Virus record (IMG/VR): IMGVR_UViG_2711768053_000015
From: a virus
Lineage: Duplodnaviria > Heunggongvirae > Uroviricota > Caudoviricetes
Direction: 5' to 3' (one strand)
DNA: 35,466 nt
The position numbers and the translations under genes were made by a program. This document shows positions 1 to 6,225 of the stretch, in pieces. The notes beneath the pieces were generated by a model. It was not told the DNA's origin. It did no database searches and was given only the letters and a program-made list of their open reading frames with translations. How positions within the stretch are numbered: the first letter of the stretch is position 1; every line of letters starts with the position of its first letter.

Positions 1-318
1 ATGAAAAAGATAGCTGCTATATCATTAATTAGTATTTTTATTATGTCTGGTTGTGCTGTGCATAATGATGAGACAAGTATCGGTAAATTTGGTCTTGCAT
101 ATAAAAGTAATATTCAGCGTAAACTCGATAACCAATACTACACCGAAGCCGAAGCTTCTTTAGCCAGGGGCAGAATATCTGGTGCAGAAAATATAGTAAA
201 AAATGATGCAGCCCATTTCTGTGTTACTCAGGGCAAAAAAATGCAGATAGTTGACCTGAAGACAGAAGGTGCAGGATTACATGGCGTCGCTCGTCTGACA
301 TTCAAATGTGGAGAGTGA
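1..318 (+). CDS. yegR: Small host lipoprotein (signal peptide plus lipobox MSGC); 105 aa matches E. coli YegR in length and locus
   Basis: ORF track 1..318; N-terminal hydrophobic signal ending in Cys; sits outside attL on the host side; neighbourhood yegQ-cyaR agrees with the K-12 yegQ-cyaR-ogrK-yegZ-yegR locus (recalled). Confidence 0.55.
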   Translation: MKKIAAISLISIFIMSGCAVHNDETSIGKFGLAYKSNIQRKLDNQYYTEAEASLARGRISGAENIVKNDAAHFCVTQGKKMQIVDLKTEGAGLHGVARLTFKCGE

Positions 319-380
319 GAATATTTTTTGGTAAGCGTCAAACATGCGCGTTCTGGTTGTGCTTAGCCGGAACCTGTGCG

Positions 381-413
381 AGCACGATGCCGTTACGTGA
401 AAGGCATCGTGCT
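381..413. repeat. Perfect 11-bp inverted repeat (agcacgatgcc / ggcatcgtgct) with an 11-nt loop, no U-tract
   Basis: Read directly: 381..391 pairs with 403..413. Lies between the lipoprotein gene and attL; possible protein-binding site or non-canonical terminator. Confidence 0.5.
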
Positions 414-476
414 ATGAAGGGAGATTCTATCGATGTGGTCAATGGAAGACGGTGACCAGGGATAGGGCTTATGCAT

Positions 477-503: not shown

Positions 504-582
504 TAGGGTGTCACCAGTAGGGGCTTTCAACGGTACAATGCGGGTTTGAGCGGCATAAATTACCACTGAAAGCCCTTAAACG

Positions 583-1596
583 TTACTCTACTGTGGACAC
601 TGTGTGGACACTCTCGGCCTCAGTACCACCTCTTAGCGGATTAAGAGAAATGGCGTCCTGAAGGTACTCTGGCGCAAAATGAGCGTAAACCATAGTTTGC
701 TCAATCCGCGTGTGACCTAGTATCCGTTGTAGCGTGATAATACTTCCTCCATTAATCATGAAATGAGTGGCAAAGCTGTGCCTTAGTGCATGTGTGGCTT
801 GCCCCGTGGGCAAATCCGGTTTTATTGCTTTCATTGTTCGTCTGAAGCGAGGGTAATCAGCATCAGGGAATAAAAAACCTCGTTTGTTATCCGCGATCAT
901 TTTGGCAACAGCCTCTGAGATCGGGACGGTGCGTGGTTTGTTTGTTTTCGTTTTAACAAACGTGACGCGGTTATGGATGATATTTTCTGCTTTCAAACGA
1001 GCTGCTTCTCCCCAACGTGCTCCTGTACTCAGGCAAAGAATCGCAATCTTTTTATTGTCGCCGTCAAGTGCTGCAAGCAGTAAGGCAATTTCTTCCTGTG
1101 TGAGATAGCCTGTTTCTGGTTTTTCCTCCTTAAGCCTCTTTGTCCCTCTGATAGGGTGCTCACCAAAGAATAACTCCGCTTCAATCAGGGCTGTAAACAT
1201 GCCGCTAATACATGTTAAATCACGATTGATACTCGAAGGTTTAATACCCTGACTTCTTCGGGTGGCGCAGTACTGGCTGATAAGGGATTTCGTGATTTGA
1301 AATGCGCATGGGTCATTCGTTATTTTTGTGAAGATTTCAATTTTTCCAAGATTAGATTTCCCATGCTCTTCGTGTTTACCCTTTAAATCCCACCAGATCT
1401 GTGTCAGTTCCGACAGACGTCGTTTGTCTGTTGGTTTTGATAGCCATTCTTTATTGTGGTGGTTGTACAACGTGTATTTTTCGAAAGCGACAGCTTCGCT
1501 TTTCTTATCAAACTTCCTACGGATGCGTTTTCCGTTACGTCCAGTAGGGCGGATGTCCACTTCATATCGACCATCATCGAGTTTTTTGATTGCCAT
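583..1596 (-). CDS. int: Tyrosine site-specific integrase (P2 Int-like, 337 aa)
   Basis: ORF track; C-terminal catalytic residues in HALRHSFATH...LGH...VYAHF context (R-H-R-Y family); adjacent to attL; length equals P2 Int. Confidence 0.95.
   Translation of the reverse strand: MAIKKLDDGRYEVDIRPTGRNGKRIRRKFDKKSEAVAFEKYTLYNHHNKEWLSKPTDKRRLSELTQIWWDLKGKHEEHGKSNLGKIEIFTKITNDPCAFQITKSLISQYCATRRSQGIKPSSINRDLTCISGMFTALIEAELFFGEHPIRGTKRLKEEKPETGYLTQEEIALLLAALDGDNKKIAILCLSTGARWGEAARLKAENIIHNRVTFVKTKTNKPRTVPISEAVAKMIADNKRGFLFPDADYPRFRRTMKAIKPDLPTGQATHALRHSFATHFMINGGSIITLQRILGHTRIEQTMVYAHFAPEYLQDAISLNPLRGGTEAESVHTVSTVE
592..610. promoter_or_regulatory. Two direct TGTGGACA repeats, candidate arm-type Int binding sites of the P' arm
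   Basis: TGTGGACA at 592..599 and 603..610, 11-bp periodicity, inside the 3' end of int next to the core. A similar pair lies near attR at 33875..33893. Confidence 0.5.
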
Positions 1597-4172: not shown

Positions 4173-6225
4173 AGCCTCCGGGCGTTTTGTCCCTCCGTCA
4201 GCATTTGCTGCAGGCACCGGTAAGGCGTTTACCGGTGCTTATGCATGGAACGCGCCACGCGAGGCCGTCGGGCGCGAAAGACCCCTTACACGTGACGAGA
4301 TGCGTCAGGTGCAAGGTGTTTTATCCACGATTAACCGCCTGCCTTACTTTTTGCGCTCGCTGTTTACTTCACGCTATGACTACATCCGGCGCAATAAAAG
4401 CCCGGTGCACGGGTTTTATTTCCTCACATCCACTTTTCAGCGTCGTTTATGGCCGCGCATTGAGCGCGTGAATCAGCGCCATGAAATGAACACCGACGCG
4501 TCGTTGCTGTTTCTGGCAGAGCGTGACCATTATGCGCGTCTGCCGGGGATGAATGATAAGGAGCTGAAAAAGTTTGCCGCCCGTATCTCATCGCAGCTTT
4601 TCATGATGTATGAGGAACTCTGCGATGCCTGGGTGGATGCGCATGGCGAAAAAGAATCGCTGTTTACGGATGAGGCGCAGGCTCACCTCTATGGTCATGT
4701 TGCTGGCGCTGCACGTGCTTTCAATATTTCCCCGCTCTACTGGAAAAAATACCGTAAAGGACAGATGACCACGAGGCAGGCATATTCTGCCATTGCCCGC
4801 CTGTTTAACGATGAGTGGTGGATTAGTCAGCTTAAAGGCCAGCGTATGCGCTGGCATGAGGCGTTACTGATTGCTGTCGGGGAGGTCAATAAAGACCGTT
4901 CACCTTATGCCAGTAAACATGCCATTCGTGATGTGCGTGCGCGCCGCCAGGCAAATCTGGAATTTCTTAAATCGTGTAACCTTGAAAACAGGGAAACCGG
5001 CGAGCGCATCGACCTTATCAGTAAGGTGATGGGCAGTATTTCTAATCCTGAAATTCGCCGGATGGAGCTGATGAACACCATTGCCGGTATTGAGCGTTAC
5101 GCCGCCGCAGAGGGTGATGTGGGGATGTTTATCACGCTGACCGCGCCGTCAAAGTATCACCCGACTCGTCAGGTCAGAAAAGGCGAAAGTAAAACCGTTC
5201 AGCTTAATCACGGCTGGAACGATGAGGCATTTAATCCAAAGGATGCGCAGCGTTATCTCTGCCGCATCTGGAGCCTGATGCGCACGGCATTCAAGGATAA
5301 TGATTTACAGGTCTACGGTTTGCGTGTCGTCGAGCCACACCACGACGGAACGCCGCACTGGCATATGATGCTTTTTTGTAATCCACGCCAGCGTAACCAG
5401 ATTATCGAAATCATGCGTCGCTATGCGCTCAAAGAGGATGGTGACGAAAGAGGAGCCGCGCGAAACCGTTTTCAGGTAAAGCACCTTAACCGGGGCGGTG
5501 CTGCGGGATATATCGCGAAATACATTTCAAAAAATATCGACGGCTATGCACTGGATGGTCAGCTCGATAATGATACCGGCAGACCGCTGAAAGATACTGC
5601 CGCGGCTGTTACCGCATGGGCGTCAACGTGGCGCATCCCGCAATTTAAAACGGTTGGTCTGCCGACAATGGGGGCTTACCGTGAACTACGCAAATTGCCT
5701 CGCGGCGTCAGCATTGCTGATGAGTTTGACGAGCGCGTCGAGGCTGCACGCGCCGCTGCAGACAGTGGTGATTTTGCGTTGTATATCAGCGCGCAGGGCG
5801 GGGCAAATGTCCCGCGCGATTGTCAGACTGTCAGGGTCGCCCGTAGCCCGTCGGATGACGTTAACGAGTACGAGGAAGAAGTCGAGAGAGTGGTCGGCAT
5901 TTACGCGCCGCATCTCGGCGCGCGTCATATTCATATCACCAGAACCACGGACTGGCGCATTGTGCCGAAAGTGCCGGTCGTTGAGCCTTTGACTTTAAAA
6001 AGCGGCATCGCCGCGCCTCGGAGTCCTGTCAATAACTGTGGAAAGCTCACTGGTGGTGATACTTCGTTACCGGCTCCCACACCTTCTGAGCACGCCGCAG
6101 CAGTGCTTAATCTGGTTGATGACGGTGTTATCGAATGGAGTGACCCAGAGGTCGTCAGAGTGTTTAGAAACACATTAAAGCATTATTTGCCAATGTTTAC
6201 TCGGCAAGAGAAGATAAGTGGCTAG
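4162..6225 (+). CDS. A: Replication initiation protein A (rolling-circle nickase); start taken at MAVKASG
   Basis: ORF track 4120..6225; strong match to recalled P2 gpA including HxH-type motif VEPHHDGTPHWHMMLF and the active-site region GYIAKYISKN; start at 4162 overlaps the orf83 stop. Confidence 0.92.
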   Translation: MAVKASGRFVPPSAFAAGTGKAFTGAYAWNAPREAVGRERPLTRDEMRQVQGVLSTINRLPYFLRSLFTSRYDYIRRNKSPVHGFYFLTSTFQRRLWPRIERVNQRHEMNTDASLLFLAERDHYARLPGMNDKELKKFAARISSQLFMMYEELCDAWVDAHGEKESLFTDEAQAHLYGHVAGAARAFNISPLYWKKYRKGQMTTRQAYSAIARLFNDEWWISQLKGQRMRWHEALLIAVGEVNKDRSPYASKHAIRDVRARRQANLEFLKSCNLENRETGERIDLISKVMGSISNPEIRRMELMNTIAGIERYAAAEGDVGMFITLTAPSKYHPTRQVRKGESKTVQLNHGWNDEAFNPKDAQRYLCRIWSLMRTAFKDNDLQVYGLRVVEPHHDGTPHWHMMLFCNPRQRNQIIEIMRRYALKEDGDERGAARNRFQVKHLNRGGAAGYIAKYISKNIDGYALDGQLDNDTGRPLKDTAAAVTAWASTWRIPQFKTVGLPTMGAYRELRKLPRGVSIADEFDERVEAARAAADSGDFALYISAQGGANVPRDCQTVRVARSPSDDVNEYEEEVERVVGIYAPHLGARHIHITRTTDWRIVPKVPVVEPLTLKSGIAAPRSPVNNCGKLTGGDTSLPAPTPSEHAAAVLNLVDDGVIEWSDPEVVRVFRNTLKHYLPMFTRQEKISG

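Follow-up and report, generated by a model that had tools for sequence, protein, structure and literature searches.

The short host flank between yegR and the attL core of a P2-like prophage carries a decayed copy of a phage P arm. We interpret positions 430-476 of the window (the whole 35,466-nt stretch of DNA analysed here) as the P arm of an ancient P2-type prophage that would have resided at the cyaR terminator and lost nearly all of its genome, and we assign a probability of about 0.72 to this reading. The copy is homologous to the phage arm, it belongs to a segment inserted at a known attachment site, the vestiges in this segment follow the order and orientation of a P2-like prophage, and the segment is found throughout E. 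coli; we infer a single element as the source of all of these vestiges.

The window and its resident prophage

The window begins exactly with the start codon of yegR (position 1) and ends exactly with that of yegQ (position 35466). It contains the following features:

1-318, plus strand: yegR, a 105-aa lipoprotein ORF annotated as YegR, followed by the 158-nt flank 319-476
323-371, plus strand: pre-cos-like vestige, 38/49 identical to 30517-30565 of phage 186 on the same strand
381-413, plus strand: hairpin with a perfect 11-bp stem and no U tract, just upstream of the P-arm copy
417-426, plus strand: core-like 10-mer AAGGGAGATT, matching the 3'-terminal 10 nt of the 27-nt core exactly
430-457, plus strand: fossil of the P-arm Int arm-binding site, from alignments, motif search and the P2 footprint annotation
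458-476, plus strand: rest of the P-arm fossil, with the IHF-site region reduced by a 16-nt gap
477-503, no strand: attL core of the resident prophage, the 27-nt P2 core AAAAAATAAGCCCGTGTAAGGGAGATT, from the P2 attP annotation
504-617, plus strand: P' arm of the resident prophage, colinear with P2 24383-24496, with the Cox-binding region and two Int arm repeats
583-1596, minus strand: integrase gene of the resident P2-like prophage, a 337-aa ORF that equals P2 int (24462-25475) in position and length
from 10222: cos site of the resident prophage
32369-33532: gpD of the resident prophage
33614-33866, plus strand: ogr and terminator of the resident prophage, colinear with P2 ogr and terminator
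33871-33933, plus strand: functional P arm of the resident prophage, with Int arm sites (33871-33898) and the IHF site, up to the core
33934-33960, no strand: attR core, the 3' half of the cyaR terminator
33937-34022, minus strand: cyaR (RyeE) small RNA gene (Rfam RF00112, 100.7 bits, E 4.8e-21)
34105-35466, minus strand: yegQ, annotated, the conserved right-hand host flank and the anchor for the outgroup loci

A motif search placed the Int arm repeats TGTGGACA of the resident P' arm at 592-599 and 603-610. The ogr gene proper occupies 33614-33832, where an ATG at 33614 opens 72 codons, to be compared with the 219-nt ogr of P2; an ORF at 33551-33832 shares its end with the ogr stop. The resident P arm is identical to P2 over the Int footprint (P2 24293-24320) and diverges more strongly near the core (TTACGCGT in the window, TTGTACGT in P2); across the whole queried segment, 33832-33960, identity to P2 is 94.6%.

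Note that a 709-aa ORF at 22083-24212, the tail-fibre gene by its colinearity with P2 gene H, contains tandem units of 132 nt (44 codons) at 22601-23260, seen as four overlapping 264-nt copies at a spacing of 132 nt, with 74-86% identity to the reference copy.

A decayed P arm in the left flank

The sequence-only reading had pointed out that 431-460 (cgatgtggtcaatggaagacggtgaccagg) resembles the P arm at 33872-33900 (cgatgtggtcaatgtgtggacgtgaccag) although it lies on the bacterial side of attL. Both sequences and both positions proved correct, the copy does lie on the bacterial side of the core at 477-503, and the similarity is well above chance. The best local alignment joins TCGATGTGGTCAATG (15/15), a scrambled block of 7 nt and GTGACCAG (8/8) with a score of 38, as compared with 14.7 +/- 2.2 for shuffled sequences (maximum 28; none of 2000 reached 38), so that 430-459 and the P arm at 33871-33900 share exact runs of 15 and 8 nt in register. 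Over the arm sites the identity of flank and phage is 26/31, and relative to the core the copy agrees with the real P arm in both side and orientation. The P2 record annotates this stretch of the phage arm as the 'Int, P arm' protein-binding site (NC_001895 24293-24320, tcgatgtggtcaatgtgtggacgtgacc). In a repeat comparison, flank and phage arm paired at 416-464 and 33857-33905 (71% over 49 nt) and, at the core, at 469-503 and 33926-33960 (94%); the spacings of these two pairs differ by 16 nt, and the flank has therefore lost this length between the arm sites and the core. The missing part corresponds to the IHF site (P2 24324-24357), the next feature after the Int site in the P2 arm.

The consensus of the P2-type Int arm repeat is tgTGGaCa (PMC3448106), and a functional P arm holds two such direct repeats about one helical turn apart, then an IHF site, the repeats ending some 35 nt from the core. 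In the fossil at 430-457 the first repeat, TGTGGTCA at 434-441, is intact and identical to the first P-arm repeat of P2, whereas the second is destroyed (GAAGACG against TGTGGAC in the phage), and the A/T-rich IHF segment is missing. In comparison with the P arm of P2 attP (NC_001895 24293-24357) the copy is thus homologous and alike in side and orientation relative to the 27-nt core, but it has lost its second repeat and 16 nt of the IHF region, and neither ogr nor a U-tract terminator is found upstream of it. By its sequence the flank copy is a relic and not a functional arm. As the partner repeat and the IHF site are lost and the arm lies 16 nt closer to the core than in attP, we judge it most likely to be inert, with no present function.

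The bases that abut the core are phage-like as well: the flank has TTATGCAT at 469-476 where the phage has TTACGCGT, while the corresponding sequence of Escherichia sp. E1V33, GTGAGGC, is unrelated to TTATGCAT. Most flanks carry TTATGCAT, and some (IMG/VR contigs L104, L111, L129 and L130) show the phage-type TTACGCGT immediately left of the core; this may represent allelic variation of the host or may stem from an exchange left of the core.

A longer allele of the flank is present in 147 of 5426 complete E. coli genomes and exceeds the common allele of the window by 12 nt that begin with GGGATCAATCCGTCTCTATGG. It reads …GGGATCAATCCGTCTCTATGGTTTATGCAC (also given as …GGTCACCTGGGATCAATCCGTCTCTATGGTTTATGCAC) up to the core and occurs in IMG/VR contigs L119, L121 and L156. 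The 12 additional nucleotides align with the IHF region of the phage (…GAAATAAATCCTTTTATTTCATTGTATTACGCGT before the core), such that the deletion there amounts to only 4 nt, as against 16 nt in the common allele. The presence of these IHF-like bases shows that the flank descends from a full P arm. A manual count on the alignment gives about 69% identity to the phage for the whole P arm of this allele.

An islet between yegS and cyaR

To place the flank in context we compared the loci of 80 representatives of other enterobacterial species, fetched via YegQ. In 46 of the 80, yegS starts about 90 nt from the cyaR core and there is no similarity to a P arm; 10 have a strong P2-type P arm belonging to a prophage or a remnant, and two have a borderline degenerate arm. 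Two non-coli Escherichia were sampled, E1V33 and E. albertii. In E1V33, whose yegQ DNA is 93% identical to that of E. coli, yegS adjoins the cyaR terminator at about 90 nt from the core, and the alignment with E. coli strain A1 has a single gap of 809 bp, whose left border is …GATGAAAGTCG and whose right border is the core itself. Relative to E1V33 and to the 46 species, yegR and its flank thus form an insertion in E. coli, an islet of about 810 bp placed precisely at the P2 crossover site.

In E. coli itself the islet is nearly universal. The flank 1-476 is present as a whole in 5385 of 5426 complete genomes, at 96-100% identity, and in 4207 of the 5426 it is joined directly to core and cyaR at an unoccupied junction, of which strain A1 is an example. 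The sequence-only reading had attributed the arm copy to an older P2-like element in whose core the current prophage integrated; the older element and the use of its core stand, but the arm is no peculiarity of this strain. The same reading named empty sites with 431-460 as native bacterial DNA as the observation that would speak against it. Taken literally, such sites abound (the 4207 unoccupied ones); their sequence, however, is not native, as the outgroups show an insertion of about 810 bp with P2-type vestiges at both ends.

The islet's left end lies outside the window (about 2174-2300 of locus L002). At the syntenic register it holds a degenerate copy of the core with 18/27 matches (binomial P(>=17) = 1.2e-4, and lower for 18), so that a direct repeat of the core brackets the islet, with 27/27 positions on the right and 18/27 on the left; the left copy is degenerate, as would be expected of a copy under no selection. 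It continues into 95-125 nt homologous to the P2-type P' arm of the resident prophage, with scores of 22-27 against a null of 9.1 +/- 1.5 that none of 3000 shuffles reached. This P' fossil is specific to the P2-type arm (z 8.9), while the P' arms of other P2-like prophages at the same site give z of about 1. Prophages of this latter kind were seen in IMG/VR contigs L126, L142, L146 and L163, where identity to the core stops at …GTAAGGG and the P' arms are unrelated, and they thus represent distinct phage lineages that share the attL.

Between its ends the islet retains one gene, yegR, and no recognisable phage genes. The segment 323-371 aligns to phage 186 with a score of 43 (null 15.2 +/- 2.2, none of 2000 shuffles), and its counterpart lies, on the 186 feature map, between t95b, the last terminator, and cosR. 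As it is on the same strand as in 186, its orientation fits the map of a P2-like prophage, and P' arm, pre-cos piece and P arm are arranged and oriented as expected from the maps of P2 and 186. The principal hotspot for cargo genes in P2-like phages is the stretch from gpA to cos/gpQ (PMC13586616), and since the pre-cos-like piece comes right after yegR, this gene occupies the cargo position. The gene is absent between yegS and cyaR in E1V33 and the 46 other species, and its family (PF27694) is narrow and patchy. Distant homologues of YegR stand in IS-rich or ordinary chromosomal contexts and not in P2-like elements, tblastn found no YegR in phages, and among the 80 matches listed in IMG/VR all were E. 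coli flanks with 96-100% identity. We regard yegR as probable cargo that has survived from the ancient element.

Some strains have 174 additional bp directly after the yegR stop, as seen in Z1323CEC0015 (2826-2999 of locus L003) and in ST131-type strains; EC958 and JJ1887 gave two-piece matches of similar extent. The segment is the remnant of a companion gene for a 110-aa lipoprotein, lost from the allele of the window, and a gene of this kind follows yegR homologues in other bacteria (L095, 3322-3654). Two YegR matches of lower identity, considered as possible other Escherichia species, were discarded, as the genes are fragmented and the records are apparently frameshift-rich E. coli assemblies.

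The hairpin at 381-413 has a minimum free energy of -24.6 kcal/mol (z -4.4) and occupies the position of the ogr terminator in P2-like phages; terminator prediction made no call on it. Its stem is the same in K-12, where the loop alone differs. We considered the segment 372-430, with the hairpin and the 10-mer, as a decayed cos and rejected this assignment: comparison with the cos regions of 186, P2, the resident prophage and E. albertii gave no significant match, for which reason an apparent MAFFT alignment was not trusted, and these comparisons yielded no detectable phage counterpart for 372-428. The 10-mer AAGGGAGATT was equalled or bettered against the core by 28 of 5000 shuffles (p about 0.006), and K-12 has AAGGAGGATT at its position; it may be the vestige of a further copy of the core, or a chance match. 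A search of 1-700 against Rfam gave no match. Phage records searched with the flank returned only contamination by host flank (vB_EcoM-720R8, 'Phage TP') and the short 186 match, and a scan of IMG/VR for the motif shared by flank and 186 yielded E. coli flanks, 186 and one unrelated sequence, with no intermediate phage.

A related fossil adjoins cyaR in E. albertii NBRC 107761 (about 1850-2326 of locus L009, in the orientation of the window), comprising an AT-rich region with cargo genes, pre-cos sequence with a partial cos that is significant against both 186 and P2, a fragment of an IS transposase, a P arm and the core. Site and layout (cargo, cos-proximal sequence, P arm, core) are those of E. 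coli; unlike the E. coli islet, it carries other cargo, a recognisable partial cos and an IS fragment and has kept its IHF region. It is an independent event.

Elements beside cyaR in Citrobacter, Scandinavium, Trabulsiella and other genera also contain P2-type arm repeats. As these repeats recur in the P' arm and in the elements of other genera, and it is in the flank that the copy is damaged, the sequence must have passed from phage to chromosome. At six loci (L007, L066, L072, L076, L080 and L082, from Enterobacter species together with one record of 100% YegQ identity that bears the label E. hormaechei) the cyaR core is adjoined by another kind of element. Its coding region ends …GAGGGGAGAGAAGGC directly at the core and it has no P2-type arm repeats, and further integrative elements hence use the site too. 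Differences are also seen in the terminator of cyaR, as a comparison of Kluyvera (L031, L039 and L048) with 33934-33975 of the window and with L008 shows. In Kluyvera the native terminator has the sequence of the P2 core and pairs into a perfect stem, CCCGTG/CACGGG; in E. coli the phage-type 3' half is paired with CACAGG, leaving one U.G wobble, and E1V33 and Citrobacter have CCTGCG. These sequences are consistent with one half of the E. coli terminator having been overwritten by a phage core.

Proposed origin of the islet and reuse of the site

In the reading that we prefer, an ancestor of E. coli would have acquired a P2-type phage by integration at the 3' terminator of cyaR, and deletions would then have removed int through A and cos through ogr. 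The left core would have been free to decay and the right one preserved, the latter being intact because it is half of the cyaR terminator and needed by cyaR. The fossil attR core would now serve as attB (locI) for modern P2 phages, including the resident prophage. From the promoter region of yegS to cyaR, the islet would accordingly be made up of a degenerate attL core, a P2-type P' fossil, an AT-rich stretch, yegR (followed in some strains by the remnant of a second lipoprotein gene), the 49-nt pre-cos-like piece, the hairpin, the P-arm fossil and the core.

Several observations speak against this history. The islet has no recognisable phage gene, the searches gave no phage with yegR, homologues of yegR elsewhere stand outside P2 contexts, 372-428 matched no phage sequence in the comparisons made, and only two non-coli Escherichia are among the outgroups. 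Left core and arms, moreover, show only about 67-70% identity to modern P2, more divergence than a P2-identical sequence should have gathered by simple decay at the site after E1V33-like lineages branched off. Probably the ancient phage was unlike P2, or events were more complex, the islet being of greater age with losses elsewhere or having been brought in by recombination.

Two nested fossils offer a possible but rather unlikely alternative. Here an older element would have left the left core, the P' arm, yegR and the pre-cos piece, and a later P2-type prophage in the right core would have left 430-476 after a deletion from behind its attL core to just before the Int sites of its P arm, with AAGGGAGATT at 417-426 as what remains of the middle core. 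The 10-mer does match the 3' end of the core and ends 3 nt before the arm fossil, the K-12 locus documents a deletion of the same type, from inside the attL core to inside the prophage, and the arm sites with their 26/31 matches look fresher than the left core with 18/27. On the other hand, the 10-mer is short and changed in K-12, with nothing core-like upstream of it, and more events are needed; the P arm of the longer allele, at about 69%, resembles the P' fossil, so that a single age suffices.

The islet may also never have been a full prophage. It may derive from a mini-cassette of a P2-type attP, with both arms up to the Int sites, and a lipoprotein gene, which P2 Int acting in trans would have placed at cyaR. 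From the sequence at hand it appears improbable that either this is the case or the surviving Int repeat still modulates P2 integration or excision at locI. In the explicit form of the second possibility, TGTGGTCA would be a working accessory site for the N-terminal domain of P2 Int, kept by selection, and its binding would affect how locI is chosen or how attL behaves in excision. The 15-nt perfect run within an otherwise decayed arm could hint at such a constraint, the repeat is identical to the first P-arm repeat of P2, and neither the repeat nor its context (TCGATGTGGTCAATGGAAGACGG) varies among the 21 IMG/VR flank variants that carry it. At about 7% divergence, however, no change in 27 nt is expected with a probability of about 14%, and the invariance is therefore no evidence of constraint. 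Int binds direct repeats as dimers (PMC3448106), and of the pair only the first repeat is left; there is no IHF site, the arm stands 16 nt or about 1.5 helical turns out of its usual spacing to the core, and attB sites of outgroups that lack such a repeat still host P2-like prophages. We consider the accessory site very unlikely.

The K-12 locus allows for a narrower version of the older-element idea. In K-12 (strain TG1) the same flank and arm copy are followed by a truncated attL core (…aataagcccgtgta, then gcagag…) and, to its right, a fragment of D (D', yegZ), ogrK, a complete P arm and attR. The P2 remnant ogrK-yegZ cited in the sequence-only reading is thus seen in the K-12 sequence. Its further suggestion that the flank is a more fully deleted version of such a remnant fails, as K-12 carries both the arm copy and the remnant, and the remnant must be a separate, later occupant. 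Nor does an arm fragment alone survive, in view of yegR, the 186-like piece, the degenerate attL core and the P' arm. That this strain or a recent ancestor once had a K-12-like remnant which was deleted down to the arm fragment draws on the existence of such remnants at the locus, but K-12 has the arm copy in addition to a remnant with its own complete P arm to the right, and the copy is found in 5385 of 5426 genomes and at 4207 unoccupied sites. We regard this version as hardly credible. None of the parts of a K-12-type remnant (D' fragment, ogr, a complete P arm after a truncated attL core) was present when 319-476 was inspected for them.

The two relics nevertheless have much in common. Both use the 3' end of cyaR, both belong to the same phage family, and both would have arisen by integration and subsequent internal deletion with the attR side retained. 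The K-12 remnant is confined to its lineage; its start lies within a truncated attL core, and a complete P arm, ogr and part of D are preserved in it, whereas the fossil in the yegR islet is species-wide, lies to the left of the former, has no phage gene and a decayed P arm, and extends over about 810 bp to a degenerate attL that adjoins yegS. Barreiro and Haggard-Ljungquist are said to have described the cryptic P2 remnant at locI of K-12 (yegZ = D', ogrK, attR) in 1992. K-12, with an intact P arm beside the core at locI, has been reported as a poor target for P2. If this is so, decay of the arm may have permitted the site to be reused.

A last pair of readings, chance resemblance or a P2 phage that captured host flank by aberrant excision, a known route for the pick-up of flanking host DNA, such that the phage arm would be of bacterial origin, can be put aside as next to impossible, since the shuffles exclude chance and the repeats are found beside int, in the P' arm, as well as in P2-like elements of other genera whose hosts lack the flank, while the flank copy is degenerate and the flank itself an insertion in E. 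coli.

Integration of P2 at the 3' end of cyaR and the ogrK-yegZ remnant of K-12 are already known, and a full-text literature search returned no description of the yegR islet or of the left arm of locI as phage-derived, although an earlier mention is possible. The islet is a new example of a familiar object, a prophage fossil, and does not overturn the current understanding of prophage decay. It has a practical side, as programs that call prophage boundaries or predict att sites can be misled by an arm-like repeat outside attL. At the cyaR locus many IMG/VR prophages are called from yegR onwards; automated boundaries hence take the fossil islet as part of the prophage. The orphan gene yegR gains a likely origin as prophage cargo. 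At the classical P2 site locI, the left 'bacterial' arm, and probably the left part of the core as well, would have been deposited by an earlier P2-type phage, and a phage origin could explain why locI matches the P2 attP core at 27/27 positions, whereas the native site of a sister Escherichia has two mismatches. P2-type elements would thus have occupied the terminator of one small RNA in three or more generations, represented by the species-wide fossil, the K-12 remnant and the intact prophages.
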